Source of the DNA: Candidatus Syntropharchaeum caldarium
GTDB lineage: Archaea > Halobacteriota > Syntropharchaeia > Syntropharchaeales > Syntropharchaeaceae
DNA: 32,000 nucleotides
Reading direction: 5' to 3'
Assembly: GCA_001766815.1 (NCBI GenBank)
Contig: LYOS01000001.1
Location: 390,001-422,000, forward strand
Of the stretch, positions 479 through 31,380 are shown one piece after another. Both the position numbers and the translations under genes were made by a program. Numbering within the stretch: position 1 is the first letter of the stretch; each line of letters begins with the position of its first letter. A model generated the notes under the pieces. That model had not been told where the DNA came from. It saw nothing but the letters and a program-made list of their open reading frames with translations, and did no database searches.

Positions 479-981
479 TGTGGGGGGAGGTCCTGGAGAA
501 GTTTAATCGATTTCCAGCACAGCAACGGGTGATTTCTCTCATGCTTGAGAATGGCTTTGGCATCAGTCCAGGCGGGCGCATCAGGGCAGGAAAGATCGAG
601 ATCTCCCACACAGATGTTGCAAGGGCTGTAGGAGTTGATCGAAGAGTGATTGATGCCACAATCAAAAATATAATGGCTGATGAAAGTTTAAGAACAATAT
701 TTGAGAATATGCGTGCGATTCCACTTCTCAGAGATCTTGCGCCACTCCTAAATCTGGGCGTGATCGTGATCGAGCCGCATGATGCAACGGATGTGGGCAT
801 ACTCGGTGCGGTTGCTGGCACGATCGCATCACATGGGCTTTCAATTCGCCAGGCAGTCTCTGATGACCCTGTTTTTACGGATGAACCAAGACTCACGATT
901 GTAACAGATCCCGAGATACCACCAGAGCTGATACGGGATCTCAAAAAGATTCCTGCGGTCAAGGGAGTTACGATCTACTAA
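478..981 (+). CDS. ACT-domain putative regulator of amino acid metabolism (COG2150-like)
   Basis: 167-aa ORF with an HTH-like segment (ISHTDVARAVGVDRRVI) and a C-terminal ACT-like segment (GVIVIEPHD..GILGAVAGTIASHGLSIRQ). It is translationally coupled to the upstream gene. Confidence 0.6.
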   Translation: MWGEVLEKFNRFPAQQRVISLMLENGFGISPGGRIRAGKIEISHTDVARAVGVDRRVIDATIKNIMADESLRTIFENMRAIPLLRDLAPLLNLGVIVIEPHDATDVGILGAVAGTIASHGLSIRQAVSDDPVFTDEPRLTIVTDPEIPPELIRDLKKIPAVKGVTIY

Positions 982-1397
982 TTGAACCCGATCAATTCGA
1001 AGATGGGTTAGTTAATCTCTCTAAAAGGAGGAGGTTTGAGGTGAAAAGCTGGATGCCATACCCTTTTGGAAGAGATTTGCGGGTTTTCTCATAAGGAGTT
1101 GTTGTGATGTACAGGTAACACCCACACCAGTTTCACCTCTACCTGGCAGAAGTCCTGTCTGCAAGAAGTGTACACGCTTATTGGTAATAAACTTTTTGGT
1201 TATAGTAGCATTAAATTAGAATATATTTGTATAAAAGTCTACCATTAATCTGCTGCCTGATCTTATATTTTTTGATTTTGATACAATAGATCCATGTTCA
1301 GGTCATACCTCGCCTTCATAGCACTAAGTGGCGGATTACTTGCGGGTGAGGCGGGTTATAACTTCTAAATCTATGGCTTAATGCTCCTCTCAAAATC

Positions 1398-2555
1398 TCA
1401 AATAAGCATACCTTCAGAGATTCGCTCAACTGCCACCTTAATCCTCTCCACATCTTCCGTCAACGCAAACCGCACAAAACCCTCTCCATGCGCGCCAAAT
1501 CCAACCCCGGGTGTTACAACAATCCCGCATTTTGAGAGGAGCATCTCAGTATATGACATCGAGTCATAGCCCTCAGGCACAGGTGCCCAGACGTAGAATG
1601 TAGCAAGTGGCGGCTCAAGACCCAGTCCTCTGCAGAGCACATCTCTTCTTTCTCTATAAATCGCGCTGTTCTCACCTGCAACTGCATCCGCGATCTCAAG
1701 CGCCTTTATCCCTGCCAGCTGCACCGCCTCAAAGATACCAGAGTCAATGTTTGTCTTGACCTTCAAAAGCCCTGCAAGAATATCCGGGTTTCCAAGTGCG
1801 TACCCGATTCGCCATCCTGTCATGTTACACGTCTTTGAGAGCGAGTTGAACTCAATCCCAACGTCCCGTGCACCATCGACCTCAAGAAAGCTTAAAGCGC
1901 GGGTACCATCATATACGATCTCGCTGTAAGGATTATCGTGGCACACGATGATATTGTGTTCCTTTGCAAAATCTACAACCTCTTTGAAGAACGCCTCGTC
2001 TGCGAGGGCGGCTGTTGGATTGTTGGGGTAGTTTAAAAATAGGAGCTTTGTCCTTCTCAAAACCTCAGGATCAATCTCTGTGAGATCAGGTTTGAAACCG
2101 TTCTCTGGAAGAAGTGGTAAGATGTACGGCTTTCCACCGGCAAGTATCGTTGAGTTGAGATAGACCGGGTATGCGGGATCTGGTACAAGCACATAATCAC
2201 CAGGATTTATGAATGCAAACGGTATGTGTGCAATCCCCTCTTTTGATCCGATGAGCGCAACCACTTCCTTTTCTGGATCAAGTTTCACTCCCTTGTTACG
2301 CTTGTACCACGATGCAACAGCCTCCCTGAAGACCCGCATCCCATCATACGTCGGATATCTATGCGTATTTGGATCACTGGCAGACTTGCAGAGCGTCTCA
2401 ATAACAGGTTTGGGTGTTGGAAGGTCCGGATCACCGATAGAAAGATCTATTATATCTATTCCAGCTGCTCTTGCCTCTGCCTTCATCGCATCGATCTGCG
2501 CAAATAGATACGGTGGCAACTGATTAATCCTCTCAGCATATGTTATACTTTTCAC
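1398..2555 (-). CDS. dapL: LL-diaminopimelate aminotransferase (DapL-type class I aminotransferase)
   Basis: 385 aa. The N-terminus INQLPPYLFAQID..DLSIGDPDLPTP and the PLP-lysine motif SLSKTCNMTGWRIGY are typical of DapL in methanogens. Confidence 0.75.
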   Translation of the reverse strand: MKSITYAERINQLPPYLFAQIDAMKAEARAAGIDIIDLSIGDPDLPTPKPVIETLCKSASDPNTHRYPTYDGMRVFREAVASWYKRNKGVKLDPEKEVVALIGSKEGIAHIPFAFINPGDYVLVPDPAYPVYLNSTILAGGKPYILPLLPENGFKPDLTEIDPEVLRRTKLLFLNYPNNPTAALADEAFFKEVVDFAKEHNIIVCHDNPYSEIVYDGTRALSFLEVDGARDVGIEFNSLSKTCNMTGWRIGYALGNPDILAGLLKVKTNIDSGIFEAVQLAGIKALEIADAVAGENSAIYRERRDVLCRGLGLEPPLATFYVWAPVPEGYDSMSYTEMLLSKCGIVVTPGVGFGAHGEGFVRFALTEDVERIKVAVERISEGMLI

Positions 2556-2559
2556 ATTA

Positions 2560-3696
2560 TCACTTCTTCATTTTTTTTGCATGAACCTCTACAATCGCAT
2601 ACTCGCGATTGCCAAGCCCAAGTCGTTCTCCAGCATCGATCTGAACACCTGAATCGGTTTCCGGGAAAATGCCTCTGAACTTATCGCCCTCTATGCCGTT
2701 TGCCATCGATTCTGGCAGTGCCGTGGCAGCGGTTACAAGATCGAGTGATGCCTTATCGATCGCGACGATATCCCTGGATGCAAGGATCCCGAGGTCGGGC
2801 ACGATCGGGTTGTCTGAGTATGGATGGCAATCACAGTGCGGGGTGATATCAAGTAGAAAATTGAAAAATGTGAACTTATCACGTCCCACAAGATCCATCA
2901 CAGCCTTTGCACAGTCAACAAGCCTTGTATCAAGCTCAGCAGGTTTTGTCCACTCAACGATTACAGCATCTTCCCTGCATATACCGATACAACCCCCACA
3001 CCTGATACACCTCCTCGTATCGATGGCGTAATCTTCAATCGCATCAGATGGGCAGATCTTCACACACTCATCGCAATGGTTACAGCGACTGCTATCGATC
3101 TGTGGGTAATCTTTCAGGTGAATGTCGTATTTTGATGGCTTTGCCGTGCAACCAACACCTATATTCTTCAGCGATCCTCCAAATGAACCTGTGAGATGGC
3201 CTTTGAAGTGTGTGAGGCATATGAGACGATCACAATCCGCGATTGCTCTTGCAACATATACTTCCTTCAGCTGGATTCCATCAACCTCAACCTTCACAAA
3301 GTCAAGGCCCTTGATGCCATCGGCGATGATTATCGGGGCCCCGAGCGTCTGATGGGTATATCCATTTTCCTCGGCCACTCTGATCCTCCCTGTTGCGAAA
3401 TTTGTCGCACGACTCATCCCCAGACCGCACGTCTCTGTGAAAAACGGATCTCCGCCACGCGCTTTGACCAGTTCTGCAACCTTTCGCATGAATACAGATC
3501 TCAGCTGTTTTGTAACACCGCGCTCACCAAAATGAACTTTGAGTGCAACACTCTCCCCGCGTTCTACATCATCGAGGATACCACTCTTTGCAATAAGCTC
3601 ATCAAGCCTGCTGACGGCACTGAGGTGCGGTTGATACCATTCACTGACCTCTGCAACTGGCGCTCGTGTATCAGTGAAGTAAACAGTTGCGACCAT
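2560..3696 (-). CDS. DUF362 domain protein with an inserted 2x[4Fe-4S] ferredoxin domain
   Basis: 378 aa. Two CxxCxxCxxxCP-type motifs are present (CNHCDECVKICP and CIRCGGCIGICRED). The flanking sequence resembles the DUF362 family. The gene starts 8 nt downstream of the oxidoreductase delta gene on the same strand. Confidence 0.65.
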   Translation of the reverse strand: MVATVYFTDTRAPVAEVSEWYQPHLSAVSRLDELIAKSGILDDVERGESVALKVHFGERGVTKQLRSVFMRKVAELVKARGGDPFFTETCGLGMSRATNFATGRIRVAEENGYTHQTLGAPIIIADGIKGLDFVKVEVDGIQLKEVYVARAIADCDRLICLTHFKGHLTGSFGGSLKNIGVGCTAKPSKYDIHLKDYPQIDSSRCNHCDECVKICPSDAIEDYAIDTRRCIRCGGCIGICREDAVIVEWTKPAELDTRLVDCAKAVMDLVGRDKFTFFNFLLDITPHCDCHPYSDNPIVPDLGILASRDIVAIDKASLDLVTAATALPESMANGIEGDKFRGIFPETDSGVQIDAGERLGLGNREYAIVEVHAKKMKK

Positions 3697-26524: not shown

Positions 26525-27190
26525 ATGCATCTCAATACCCTCTACCTCACCCTGCGATCCACAACTCCAATAGAGGGGGATGCATCGCATTTAAGGGGCT
26601 TCTTTGCAAGCAGGTTCAACGAATACGCCCTTCTCCACCAGCACGTTGATGTTGATAAACTTCTGTACCGTTATCCGCGAATCCAGTACAAGATAATCGA
26701 TGGCGATCCGCTTGTTCTTGGTATAGAAGAGGGGGCAGAGGTATTGAAGGAGATTTATGATAAGTACGAGGAGATACGGATAAAAGATACGGTATATACG
26801 ATCGTTGAACGTGGAATAACGCTGAGAGCGGAGGAATTTGGAGTTTCGAATAAGATTCTTGGTTATACCTTTAAGACCCCGTGGATTGCGCTTAATCAGG
26901 AGAACTATGAGAGGTATCTGAGATCGAAGAGGCGAGAACGGCGTGAGATCCTGCGGCGAATTCTCGTTGGAAATATCCTATCTGCATCAAAGGGGCTTGA
27001 TTATGTTGTACTTGATGAGATAAAGCTTGAGATTGGTGAGATGAAGCCTGTTAAGTGTAAGATCAAGAAAACGCCATTTATGGGGTTTGTGGGTGAATTT
27101 CTCGTGAACTTTGCGATTCCTGAGTACATGGGGCTTGGTAAGTCGGTATCGAGGGGGTTTGGGGCGGTGGTTGGTGCATGCAACTCGTAA
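26525..27190 (+). CDS. cas6: Cas6-like RAMP endoribonuclease (orphan; no CRISPR array in window)
   Basis: 221 aa. The C-terminal glycine-rich loop [13 protein letters not shown] has the GxGxxxxxGxG RAMP/Cas6 signature. The N-terminal [26 protein letters not shown] resembles Cas6-family (PF10040-type) proteins. The 3' end overlaps the ATG of a cas1 remnant. Confidence 0.55.
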
Positions 27191-27407
27191 TCAACACTCG
27201 CGGATCATACCTCAAGAAAGGTCGTTTGCGGTTGAGAATAACATCGAGATCGTCTTCATAGACCAGAATGGCAACCCTTACGGGAGAATCTGGCACTCAA
27301 AGCCTGGAAGCACGACATTGATCAGAAGAAAGCAGCTTGAGATCTATGATAAAGATGATGGGTTGAAGCTTGCAAAGGCATGGTCTTTAAAGAAGATCGA
27401 GAATCAA
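27178..27407 (+). pseudogene. cas1: cas1 remnant: N-terminal about 17 codons, then an out-of-frame internal deletion, then about 59 codons, then truncation
   Basis: The frame from ATG 27178 reads [15 protein letters not shown], a typical Cas1 N-terminus, and stops at 27259-27261. A second frame from about 27231 reads [53 protein letters not shown]. This matches the Cas1 N-terminal beta domain and the start of the helical domain. The catalytic C-terminal two thirds are absent. Confidence 0.75.
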
Positions 27408-27410
27408 AAG

Positions 27411-27527
27411 GAGGATATTGACACCGCGATGAAACTCGGATACAACCACCCGATGGGTCCACTTGAGCTGACAGATCTCATAGGGCTTGATACAATCCTC
27501 AAGATAGAGCAGGGCTTTATGGACGAA
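27411..27527 (+). pseudogene. Fragment of a 3-hydroxyacyl-CoA dehydrogenase C-terminal domain, fused in frame to the cas1 remnant
   Basis: [30 protein letters not shown] closely follows the conserved Hbd/3HCDH_C motif (DID.AMKLG.NHPMGPL.L.D.IGLD). No NAD-binding N-terminal domain is present anywhere nearby. Confidence 0.7.
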
Positions 27528-27565
27528 AGACCGGAAGAGAATCTATTTCCTCTCCTTCTTATTTT

Positions 27566-27898
27566 TCACAATAGAGAATCTTCCTCCTCGATTATCCTGA
27601 TCCCTGCACGCGTAGCATAGAAGTACGCACCTCCAAGAACCTTCTCATAGGGGTATCGCCCTGCAAATGTCTGGATGACGAGAAGATCTCCCCCATTCTC
27701 GGATCGCTGAATTATTACACAGATCACATAGGGCTTCAGGAAGGCCGAGGTTACAAGAATATCCTTTCTCGGTTTTGTGATGTAGTAATAACCTTCAAAC
27801 CTCTCCTCGATCTCTGAGAGCGATCTTGCCTCGTCAAAGACCCACCTGAATGCAAGCGCATTCTTTATCGGAAGCCGTTTTTTGATCTCATCTATCAT
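27566..27898 (-). CDS. Hypothetical small protein (downstream gene of an overlapping two-gene pair)
   Basis: 110 aa counted from the internal Met ([21 protein letters not shown]..). Its ATG overlaps the stop of the upstream 98-aa gene by 11 nt. GATC content is host-like. I recognised no motif. Confidence 0.45.
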
Positions 27899-28184
27899 AA
27901 TTCTCTTTCTCCACAAGAACCTCCTTATGCACAAACCCCGCATCATCAATAGCGAGGAGAAGGTATGCCTGCCTGCCGCTTACCTGCTCATCCTCGATCC
28001 TGGCTCTATACATCGCAATCTCTGGATCCTCAAGAAAGCTTCTGAGAAGTTCTATCTCCTCCTCAAGATCCGTATCCTTTCCACCGTTTTTAAGATACTC
28101 ATCAACCGCCTTCCAGTACCTACCTTTAGCGACCGTCTCGATACACTTTCCTGGTTCAGGTTTTATCGCGATAGTTCTTCTCAT
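27888..28184 (-). CDS. Hypothetical small acidic protein (upstream gene of the pair)
   Basis: 98 aa (MRRTIAIKPEPGKCIETVAKGRYWKAVDEYL..). It is translationally coupled to the downstream gene. A TATATTTTAT element lies about 55 nt upstream on the minus strand. Confidence 0.45.
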   Translation of the reverse strand: MRRTIAIKPEPGKCIETVAKGRYWKAVDEYLKNGGKDTDLEEEIELLRSFLEDPEIAMYRARIEDEQVSGRQAYLLLAIDDAGFVHKEVLVEKENYDR

Positions 28185-28250
28185 ACAGGATCAATTATCT
28201 ATCTTTCTCAAATTCCACAACGGATTCATCCTTCATAAAATATACCTATG

Positions 28251-28262
28251 CGAACTTTAAAA
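28251..28262 (+). promoter_or_regulatory. Possible archaeal BRE/TATA element (cgaacTTTAAAA) for a plus-strand transcript
   Basis: TTTAAAA at 28256-28262 is preceded by a purine-rich cgaa. The hairpin-rich region begins about 25-30 nt downstream. Confidence 0.3.
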
Positions 28263-28284
28263 GAATGAAGAGTACACAAATGTC

Positions 28285-28524
28285 AAACCTCTCGGTGATA
28301 AGCTTTCAGTATGAGGCGTAAAGCACGCCTCATACACCCATGTCCAACCTTCGGTTGGACTTGAGCACCTCTTTGAGGTGCTCCTTTCGCAATGCCTTTA
28401 TCAAAGGCATCTGCGGTTGGACTATCGCTCTTTGAGCGAGTTTTCCTGCCTTCGGCAGGACTGGTCCGGCTGAAAAGCCTACTATTTTGCCGTATGGGCA
28501 TATGGTGTGCTTGCATGGACACAG
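28285..28524 (+). ncRNA. Candidate structured non-coding RNA (unclassified): eight or more back-to-back hairpins
   Basis: Consecutive hairpins are at 28309-28335 (10-bp stem), 28342-28360, 28363-28383 (9 bp), 28389-28414, 28425-28439, 28446-28459, 28468-28479 (GGCU-GAAA-AGCC) and 28490-28505. The GNRA and CUUCG loops read correctly only on the plus strand. The ends are uncertain. Confidence 0.4.
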
Positions 28525-28924
28525 AAGATGGATTAATCAGGGATATTCACCACATTTTCCTTCAATCAGATAGGAAAAAACAGGTGTGATGGATGGGGAT
28601 TGAGGGAAAATCCTGTATCAGCGGCATTTATTATTCATGAGGGGGTCTGGTTTAGGTTTTGACCGGTGTGGGGAGGGGGTAAATCAAAATTCTCTTGAGT
28701 ATATCAGGAGATGTTAAGGCATAAAAGTTCAAAAACAACAGAAAATATATACGCACGTGAGTAGAGATATAGGCAAGGTTAAAAGTCCACTGGATAGTTT
28801 ACAGATAAACGGAGGAGAAGATGATTGAAGATTGAAAAGTTCAACCAGAGGGATGTATGTGCGAACTTGAGTTCGGATATATCGACAAATTGTAGGGATA
28901 TGCGAAGTGGGTTTGGGTATAAGT

Positions 28925-28938
28925 TGTTATACGACATT
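28925..28938 (+). repeat. attC-like 3' half-site (TGTTATacGACATT) immediately upstream of the first cassette
   Basis: It matches the 3' end of element A (TGTTATgtGACATT, 29807-29820) at 12 of 14 positions. Confidence 0.4.
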
Positions 28939-28986
28939 TTACTTGGCTATATTTGGTATATAAACCTGTGAATATGGAGGAATATA

Positions 28987-29667: not shown

Positions 29668-29730
29668 AAATTAACGCCAAGCAAAACGCTTCACCACTAT
29701 CGCGGTTCGCTCTCACTTCGTTCGAGTCGT

Positions 29731-29812
29731 ATAACACAGTATACACGGCTCACTCCGTTCGCCCAAATTTCGGCTTCGCCGAAACTTCGTATATGCTGGA
29801 AACGTATGTTAT
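29731..29812 (+). repeat. attC-like imperfect inverted-repeat element A
   Basis: It starts with ATAACA and ends with the complementary TGTTAT. The inner boxes CAGTATAC and GTATA(TG)CTG pair with each other. There is a central hairpin TTTCGGC-TTC-GCCGAAA. The element is homologous to element B over nearly its full length. Confidence 0.55.
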
Positions 29813-29844
29813 GTGACATTGCGTCTATGTCATGAGAGATTAAT

Positions 29845-30482: not shown

Positions 30483-30626
30483 ATGGAACAATGGTCAAGT
30501 ACTGTCGATCTTGATCAACTGGACTTCCTTGCCAATCCTGAGCCGTTGCGAGAGGAAGCGGAGAAGCGTGAGAGTAAGAATGTTGAGAAAAAGGAGAAAA
30601 TGTTTGTACGGCGCAACCTCACATAA
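30483..30626 (+). CDS. Possible 47-aa small ORF between the AbiV-like gene and element B
   Basis: It runs from ATG to TAA and encodes MEQWSSTVDLDQLDFLANPEPLREEAEKRESKNVEKKEKMFVRRNLT. The stop codon lies inside the ATAAC box of element B. There is no clear Shine-Dalgarno sequence. It may instead be a frameshifted C-terminal extension of the AbiV-like gene. Confidence 0.2.
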   Translation: MEQWSSTVDLDQLDFLANPEPLREEAEKRESKNVEKKEKMFVRRNLT

Positions 30627-30697
30627 CACAGGCTATACGGCTCGTTTCACTCGCCCAAATCGGCTATCGCCGACTTCGTATATCCTGAAGCCGTTAT
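30623..30697 (+). repeat. attC-like imperfect inverted-repeat element B
   Basis: The outer boxes are ATAAC and GTTAT. The inner boxes CAGGCTATAC and GTATATCCTG pair at 9 of 10 positions. The central hairpin is TCGGC-TATC-GCCGA. It shares the blocks ATAACACAG, TATAC, GGCTC, TCGCCCAAA, TCGGCT, TCGCCGA and CTTCGTATAT with element A. Confidence 0.55.
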
Positions 30698-30746
30698 CGG
30701 AAATTGCTTAAAGCTAAACATACAAAATAAATAGCGAGGTTAAAAT

Positions 30747-31258: not shown

Positions 31259-31273
31259 ATTACGCAACTTTCG

Positions 31274-31380
31274 ATAACAGAGCGTATCTGGCTACAGTGC
31301 TTCGCACTTGCCTTTCGGGTCATATAAACAAGCGGGTACGCGGTTCGCTTCGCAACCCCTTCGCATACCCCGTCAGCCGA
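31274..31380 (+). repeat. attC-like element C (conserved ends, divergent centre)
   Basis: The 5' end GATAACAGAGCGTATCTGGCT resembles CATAACACAGGCTATACGGCT of element B. The 3' end CTTCGCATACCCCGTCAGCCGAAATT resembles CTTCGTATATCCTGAAGCCGTTATCGGAAATT. The centre differs and contains its own small hairpins. GTCAG replaces GTTAT. Confidence 0.4.

Follow-up and report, generated by a model that had tools for sequence, protein, structure and literature searches.

Hairpin Run and Gene Context

We analyzed a run of back-to-back hairpins (hereafter the hairpin array) at positions 28285-28524 of a 32-kilobase (kb) stretch of DNA from Candidatus Syntropharchaeum caldarium, which is referred to as the window. 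According to Pfam scans, the window carries housekeeping genes up to ~26.5 kb, followed by cas6b (26525-27190), a chimeric open reading frame (ORF) at 27111-27620, a 110-amino-acid (aa) ORF, an AF_2379-family gene (27888-28184, minus strand) and the hairpin run. The genes located 3' of the run encode a UDG-like protein, AbiV, a VapB-like antitoxin with MazF, and an antitoxin with ParE. The AF_2379-family gene encodes 98 aa and overlaps the 110-aa gene, which is of no known family, the pair occupying 27566-28184 on the minus strand. Its family label (PF27306) comes from a precomputed annotation, and our own Pfam scan gave no match. Neither the AF_2379-family protein nor its 110-aa partner has a sequence match to solved structures or an NCBIfam name. 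No tRNA was found in the window. The features of the hairpin region are listed below, where L numbers denote loci used for comparison.

28256-28263, plus strand: TATA-like box TTTAAAAG, preceded by GCGAAC, ~46 nucleotides (nt) upstream of hairpin 1, as read from the sequence
28309-28335, plus strand: hairpin 1, GTATGAGGCGT-AAAGC-ACGCCTCATAC, stem of 11 base pairs (bp) and 5-nt loop; in the repeat family, the conserved hairpin at the 5' end
28342-28360, plus strand: hairpin 2, GTCCAACC-TTC-GGTTGGAC, 8 bp
28353-28361 and 28415-28423, plus strand: two copies of the 9-mer GGTTGGACT
28362-28423, plus strand: 62-nt indel module made up of hairpins 3 and 4 and the second GGTTGGACT copy
28363-28383, plus strand: hairpin 3, GAGCACCTC-TTT-GAGGTGCTC, 9 bp
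28389-28414, plus strand: hairpin 4, GCA-ATGCCTTT-ATC-AAAGGCAT-C-TGC, with an 8-bp core (28392-28410) and a GCA/TGC extension
28425-28444, plus strand: hairpin 5, TCGCTC-TTT-GAGCGA (6-bp stem, 28425-28439), then G and TTTT; intrinsic-terminator-like
28444-28460, plus strand: hairpin 6, TCCTGCC-TTC-GGCAGGA, 7 bp
28468-28479, plus strand: hairpin 7, GGCT-GAAA-AGCC, weak, 4 bp with a GAAA loop
28490-28505, plus strand: hairpin 8, CCGTAT-GGGC-ATATGG, weak, 6 bp including a G-U pair
28561-28597, plus strand: vestige of a cassette 5' region, TTTTCCTTCAATCA...ACAGGTGT, from alignment to L016 and L018 segments

All eight hairpins lie where a first-pass annotation, made from the sequence alone, had put them, and the TATA-like box that it reported upstream is likewise present. 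Six of the hairpins, confirmed by an inverted-repeat search and our own scan, are perfect and are packed into 152 nt (28309-28460), with the two weaker ones downstream (28468-28505) separated by a TTTT run. Altogether the window contains 44 non-overlapping perfect hairpins with stems of at least 6 bp, and 6 of them fall within these 152 nt, compared with an expected density of 0.19 per 160 nt (Poisson P ~6e-8). On average, 2000 dinucleotide shuffles of the hairpin region gave 0.15 perfect hairpins, with a maximum of 2.

The RNA fold of the region is strong on both strands, with z-scores of -7.45 for the plus and -7.75 for the minus strand, and fold energy is therefore not strand-informative. 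The palindromes are centered on 3-nt loops, so that each CUUCG reported in the first-pass annotation is a UUC triloop closed by a C-G pair and not a C(UUCG)G tetraloop in register. This weakens the tetraloop argument for the plus strand, although the plus strand is still likely to be the functional one. The recommended Rfam check gave no family match in either mode: there was no match to Rfam 15 in the whole window at the gathering threshold, and the best match in E-value mode, SorY, scored 20.3 bits versus a threshold of 111. The outer closing stem of the minimum-free-energy fold was rejected as it is not conserved among relatives, and no long-range closing or tertiary-type pairing is conserved among the syntenic ones.

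Syntenic Relatives and the Neighboring cas Genes

The same intergenic region was found at 86-97% identity in ten contigs that encode an identical AF_2379-family protein (L001-L010) and in a genome contig (L011), the nearest genome contig being that of a Candidatus Syntrophoarchaeum metagenome-assembled genome. Hairpin 1 and the TTTAAAAG box are invariant across the syntenic loci, and the AF_2379-family/110-aa gene pair is strictly conserved beside the array. Hairpin 2 shows a compensated A-T to T-A change in L007, together with a loop change from TTC to TGC, and a U-G wobble in L011. Hairpins 6 and 7 gain mismatches in the syntenic relatives; in L001 and L008 the stem of hairpin 6 is interrupted by A-A or other mispairs, the non-syntenic L015 has a perfect version of it (TCCAGCC/GGCTGGA), and hairpin 7 is not retained.

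The 62-nt module is present in the window and L008 and missing in L001-L004, L007 and L011. These seven are the syntenic relatives that cover the 9-mer stretch, and only L008 keeps both copies of the 9-mer. Since the module is absent together with one GGTTGGACT, the duplicated 9-mer marks an indel polymorphism. It does occur twice in the window, as first described, but the alternative folds proposed for it are unsupported, with one copy in 6 of 7 relatives. Two ORFs predicted across the hairpins (28283-28522 on the minus strand and 28392-28589 on the plus strand) have no Pfam match, and in relatives their frame is broken or their start codon is missing. The minus-strand ORF is disrupted by the 62-nt indel and by a 10-nt one (extra nucleotides near 28508 in L008), and the plus-strand ORF has its start codon in the dispensable module that most relatives do not have. 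Both ORFs are thus artefacts, as had been suspected, and are explained by the hairpin array.

Cas6 enzymes cut at hairpin bases, and the proximity of cas6b had led to the idea that the hairpins are its non-CRISPR substrates. However, the neighbor of this AF_2379 operon in L001-L006 is an intact 285-aa 3-hydroxyacyl-CoA dehydrogenase gene, cas genes are missing there, and in L001-L004 the hairpin array is visible beside the cas-free operon. The chimeric ORF of the window is a Cas1 N-terminal fragment fused to a 3-hydroxyacyl-CoA dehydrogenase C-terminal fragment. In the window lineage, a deletion has therefore fused a cas locus to the dehydrogenase gene, and what is left of the cas genes is its remnant. 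No CRISPR array was found in the window, and the proposed Cas6b-substrate role, which the comparison does not support, is extremely improbable. No cas6 was seen at the non-syntenic array loci, which are short, partly annotated stretches. L018 contains a RAMP-superfamily gene (2928-3689, Csm3/Cmr4-like by our reading) ~1.4 kb downstream of two arrays, and is the second case, after the window, of arrays near CRISPR-Cas genes; this probably reflects a defense-island neighborhood only.

Dispersed Copies of the Hairpin Array

A metagenome collection of 241 million records was scanned for the exact 19-mer of hairpin 1. Eleven contigs matched. In eight of them the similarity to the window array extends beyond the 19-mer, giving 10 arrays among genes unrelated to those of the window locus; the other three (L013, L014 and L020) are chance 19-mer matches with no further similarity. 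In all-against-all BLAST comparisons, the homology among dispersed loci is limited to the array (~30-140 nt) and begins sharply at ATGAGG, the first bases of hairpin 1. A covariance model built on hairpins 1 and 2 matches the window at 28309-28362 with 78.9 bits and recovers every copy, and nothing else, in 124 kb comprising the rest of the window and the other 20 sources. The window itself holds one copy. No real blastn match was found in phage and plasmid collections, and viral contigs scanned with hairpins 1-4 gave chance matches only: around the three viral matches to the hairpin 2 pattern there is neither another hairpin nor similarity to the array, and two of the three fall within a shared stretch of homologous sequence that looks coding. 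Literature searches turned up no account of this array, nor of anything comparable in this lineage.

In all eight arrays with an adjacent upstream gene, hairpin 1 abuts or overlaps the stop codon in the gene's own orientation. These genes encode VapC (L012, L018, and twice each in L016 and L022), ParE (L015) and a nucleotidyltransferase (L021). VapC proteins followed by an array end in WKPL, with the TGA stop codon supplied from within hairpin 1, whereas homologues without an array end in WKP. No array was found at the VapC homologues of ~65-80% identity in other organisms (L023-L033). The array is therefore lineage-restricted and has replaced the native VapC stop codon.

Several further observations were made at these loci. 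A small hydrophobic ORF of L018 (340-472 and 1423-1472; C-terminus ...ITLVLGYLLMQSMGLIGYEA) ends at the TAA in the hairpin 1 loop, and its last 45 nt are duplicated ahead of the second array. A 13-codon ORF of the window (28280-28321), encoding MSNLSVISFQYEA, ends in the same way, and its between-strain differences are nearly all non-synonymous. L012 has an insertion-sequence transposase gene (610-1602, minus strand; DUF772 and DDE_Tnp_1, IS5-like by our reading) inside a VapBC cassette region that is intact in the orthologous L016 and L022. L015 (1180 nt) has the same 20 nt at 1-20 and 1161-1180, and two arrays enclose its ParE-type toxin-antitoxin cassette. A cassette in circular form, a tandem duplication or a faulty assembly could each explain this contig.

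The arrays of L017, L019 and the window have no adjacent upstream gene. A GAAYTTTRAAAA motif similar to TTTAAAAG is located 50-75 nt upstream of the L017 and L019 arrays, and a stand-alone small RNA is possible for these three copies. For the window copy, such a structured RNA gene with its own TATA box is suggested by the invariant TTTAAAAG 46 nt upstream and by the strong fold with no Rfam match. However, the sequence family consists mostly of 3' flanks of protein genes, close relatives can do without hairpins 3 and 4 and carry degenerated versions of hairpins 6 and 7, and no closing or tertiary-type long-range pairing is conserved. Moreover, the TTTAAAAG box, whose promoter function is itself putative, lies within a divergent promoter region that also serves the AF_2379-family gene. 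We therefore give this alternative little weight. The first-pass annotation had called the run a candidate novel structured RNA and had named beforehand a dispersed palindromic repeat as the finding that would speak against it. The run is strongly structured, falls outside Rfam and shows compensatory changes, but it is not a single-copy RNA gene, as homologous arrays recur in unrelated contexts.

Modular Structure and Turnover of the Arrays

All arrays share one plan, in which a conserved 23-27-nt hairpin, (T)ATGAGGCGT-AAAGC-ACGCCTCAT(A), is followed by a CACCCA linker and a variable mosaic of unrelated perfect hairpins. The module repertoire includes hairpins of the hairpin 2 type (H2-type; GTCCAACC, GTCCTACC and GATCGACC), GAGCACCTC with a TTT or AAA loop, and ATGCCTTT(T) with an ATC or GTT loop. 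Further modules are TCGCTC, TCCTGCC or TCCAGCC, GTCCGACT, AGGCTTT, ATGAACTTT and GGTCTGC.

Compensatory changes, which the first-pass annotation had proposed to look for, are present in homologous copies, where hairpin 2 occurs as GTCCTACC/GGTAGGAC and GATCGACC/GGTCGATC. Across eight H2-type hairpins, two-sided changes were found at 4 of the 8 pairs and 98% of cells are paired, a result that would fit selection on the stems and that no shuffle equalled, although these sequences were chosen for forming hairpins. Furthermore, template switching at palindromes can make pairs look 'compensated' even when the RNA is not under selection. A warning for annotation is that, in regions of this kind, neither a strong fold nor 'compensatory' changes necessarily point to a dedicated RNA gene.

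Other modules vary as well. The hairpin 3 stem has a flipped loop, AAA versus TTT, in L016b and L018a; a flipped loop is a typical DNA-level event at perfect inverted repeats. Hairpin 4 occurs as ATGCCTTTT-GTT-AAAAGGCAT in L016b and L022b. Hairpin 7, degenerate in the window, is a perfect 8-bp hairpin in L017 (GTCCGACT-GAA-AGTCGGAC). The orthologous L016 and L022 are 96.9% identical over 2.5 kb but have entirely different modules between hairpins 1 and 4. The arrays are probably recombinogenic: through recombination or template switching, copies would exchange modules, acquire or drop them and invert their loops, and the same processes would also keep the stems perfect.

Palindromes of this kind could in principle be operators for dimeric DNA-binding regulators, for instance the neighboring antitoxins or the AF_2379-family pair. 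Their perfect symmetry around 3-nt centers and their location upstream of cassette promoters would suit such a role. Nevertheless, hairpin 1 overlaps stop codons and not promoters, the palindromes within one array differ from each other and are swapped while the flanking toxin-antitoxin genes stay constant, and the AF_2379 gene is absent from the non-syntenic copies. We regard operators as a very unlikely explanation.

Strand Asymmetry and Proposed Role at Cassette 3' Ends

The sense strand of 14 arrays contains 10 runs of at least five T, about six of which are independent, versus no run of at least five A. A consensus terminator scan identified hairpin 5 and its T run as the single terminator-like site, and this run is extended to T5-T6 in L007, L011 and L019. 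Behind the arrays lies a conserved segment (TTTTTAACCTTCAATCACAAATTTATCCACAGGTGT...ATG) with the promoter and ribosome-binding region of the cassette that comes next. At 28561-28597 the window retains a vestige resembling the segment found between hairpin arrays and AF2212-like antitoxin genes in L016 and L018; no VapBC coding remnant was detected after the window array by tblastn. From the T-run asymmetry, the terminator-like hairpin 5 and the promoter segment that follows, we infer that the array is a cassette 3'-end module.

Considering the observed dispersal, position, orientation, modularity and T-run asymmetry of the arrays, our preferred interpretation, held with modest confidence, is that the hairpin run is one copy of a low-copy, dispersed, modular hairpin-array repeat restricted to the Candidatus Syntrophoarchaeum lineage, and that the array functions as a 3'-end terminator and insulator of cassettes that is reshuffled at the DNA level. 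The array would be transcribed as the 3' end of the upstream cassette's transcript, its hairpins and U-tracts would end this transcript and shield it from 3' exonucleases, and it would insulate the next cassette, whose promoter comes directly after. The window copy has lost its upstream cassette gene. It begins ~46 nt behind the TATA-like box, and an integron-type cassette junction lies ~430 nt downstream of it (470-630 nt when counted from the individual hairpins); the copy is thus either a relic or the leader of a transcript entering the cassette array.

If this interpretation is correct, an archaeon would possess a well-defined extragenic palindromic repeat that is modular and tied to toxin-antitoxin and defense cassettes, to which it donates stop codons, with turnover of whole hairpins between 97%-identical strains. 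The array would also offer a compact natural system for archaeal transcript ending and insulation in dense cassette arrays, and the same system would serve the study of how perfect palindromes are maintained and shuffled.

Several observations weigh against a terminator and insulator. The window copy has T4 runs only and no upstream ORF, while L015b and L021 have no T run of at least 4. Counts of G-U versus A-C mismatches (10 versus 6) give no strand bias. Perfect palindromes and flipped loops fit a DNA-level role equally well, and the conservation of hairpin 1, including its loop, exceeds what a generic terminator needs, which is partly due to how the copies were found. To our knowledge, archaeal termination does not require hairpins. 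In addition, the statistics are thin, being based on ~10 independent copies.

Comparison with Known Systems

By analogy, the array appears to work most like REP/BIME or BOX repeats and hairpin-plus-U 3' ends, and it sits where attC sites sit. When analyzed by their defining features, it is none of REP, attC, TIGR or CRISPR. BOX elements of Streptococcus pneumoniae are intergenic modular repeats of the form boxA-boxB(n)-boxC that form stable RNA structures. The arrays share with them the intergenic location and the combination of a conserved terminal module with a variable number of internal modules, but their internal modules are unrelated palindromes, no 3' terminal module is conserved, and there is no sequence similarity. 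Like hairpin and oligo-U 3'-end signals, which include intrinsic-terminator-like sequences and 3' UTR stabilizers, the arrays place hairpins with trailing T4-T6 runs on the sense strand, in the interval from a stop codon to the promoter that follows; they differ in having up to eight hairpins and a conserved sequence dispersed among unrelated genes.

REP/BIME elements have proposed roles in termination and mRNA stabilization (PMC3733652, PMC12306157). Similar to these elements, the arrays are made of short extragenic palindromic units in mosaic clusters near gene 3' ends and vary between strains. However, they do not have the GTAG/CGTC tag at unit ends (PMC3733652): the units begin with GTAT, GTCC, GAGC, ATGC, TCGC or TCCT, and GTAG occurs only inside one hairpin 2 variant. 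Further differences are the perfect stems, the distinct sequence of each unit, the fixed first hairpin and polarity, and the archaeal host. The arrays also seem to have a low copy number, not hundreds, with one in the 32-kb window and eight contigs among the 241 million metagenome records by the exact 19-mer. No RAYT gene (IS200/IS605-type Y1 transposase) was found among the large window ORFs scanned.

attC sites resemble the arrays in being structured palindromic elements that directly follow or overlap the stop codons of small cassette genes and always face the same way (8 of 8 arrays with an adjacent upstream gene), and both are enriched beside toxin-antitoxin and defense cassettes (PMC9668308). 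Nevertheless, the array is not a single 57-141-nt imperfect hairpin with R''/R' and L''/L' boxes and extrahelical bases; its perfect hairpins fold independently of one another, and no outer stem is conserved. Nor does it have an outer RYYYAAC/GTTRRRY pair; the hairpin 2 arms fit this pattern in the window, but the GTAGGAC variant does not. TIGR arrays are likewise tandem hairpins whose stems differ within one array, with units that contain two 14-nt box C/box D spacer intervals, at most 15 nt apart, which together fill the space between stems (bioRxiv 10.64898/2026.09.09.750476). In contrast, the loops of our arrays are 3-7 nt, and no Nop-domain Tas match was found among the window ORFs.

Three other identities were rejected. 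A CRISPR array is excluded by the lack of a periodic repeat in 28200-28620 (Tandem Repeats Finder and a direct-repeat search), and type III antitoxin repeats were also dismissed as the identity of the hairpin run. A miniature inverted-repeat transposable element does not fit either, as the arrays lack terminal inverted repeats, differ in where they stop on the right and are not enclosed as wholes by a duplication. The 9-nt direct repeat GGTTGGACT flanks the internal 62-nt indel only.

Integron-like Junction and a Possible DNA-Level Site

The homology between the window, L001 and L007 stops exactly at 28936 (site 28917-28942), and the first cassette differs in each of them. The junction sequences, with the breakpoint marked by a slash, are AAGTTG/TTATAC in the window, AAGTTG/TTAGGC in L001 (~1188-1196, reverse strand) and AAGTTG/TTGTGC in L007 (~152, reverse strand). 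The junction corresponds to the integron core G/TTRRRY, and the locus thus behaves like an integron attI/attC junction, here in an alkane-oxidizing archaeon. In the main text of the archaeal-integron paper we found neither Syntrophoarchaeum nor Methanosarcinales mentioned. No integrase gene was found within the window. Imperfect attC-like palindromes (ATAACACAG-TATAC..CGG...CTTCGTATAT...GTTAT) follow the UDG-like, AbiV and MazF cassettes at 29726-29830, 30620-30700 and ~31270-31380, respectively. The first two, of the form ATAAC...GTTAT, are ~79% alike over 38 nt, and in L001 a 17-nt match to the third one occurs behind the cassette that comes first there. The z-scores of the single-strand folds of these palindromes do not stand out (-0.3 to -1.8). 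The hairpin array thus heads an integron-like cassette array, whose own attC-like elements differ from it.

This context bears on the most serious alternative, in which the array is mainly a DNA-level site: a recombinase or transposase would recognize hairpin 1, or cross over there, and so move the array or the toxin-antitoxin cassettes that it flanks. Such a site would be a functional analogue of integron attC, REP/RAYT elements or miniature transposons, and effects on RNA would be secondary. It would account for the sharp left homology edge at the first base of hairpin 1 in nine contexts, the replacement of the native VapC stop codon by the element, and the perfect palindromes, with one inverted loop and with modules exchanged between 97%-identical strains. 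The window copy lies beside a true integron-type junction with a strain-specific first cassette, and L015, with its ParE cassette between two arrays and a 20-nt terminal repeat, may be circular or tandem. On the other hand, the large window ORFs scanned include no integrase, Y1 transposase or RAYT gene. Terminal inverted repeats are lacking, and neither a conserved target sequence nor a GTAG/CGTC tag adjoins hairpin 1. The arrays vary in their right boundary, do not have the attC architecture and seem to be low in copy number. On balance we consider such a site rather unlikely. A bolder version makes the hairpin array a novel kind of recombination platform distinct from, and parallel to, attC, in which crossover at hairpin 1 would capture and exchange toxin-antitoxin and defense cassettes within archaeal cassette arrays, and the hairpins behind it would be added or swapped by an active DNA-level process, beyond passive gene conversion; this we find doubtful.

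Features of both kinds of element may be combined in a single spacer. In L016 (1705-1890, reverse strand), the spacer after a DUF3368 (PIN-like) gene opens with ATAATAACACAATC, which resembles the start of the attC-like elements of the window, ATAACACAG; a decayed hairpin 5 (TCGATC-TTT-GAGCGA) comes after it, along with the promoter segment that follows the arrays.

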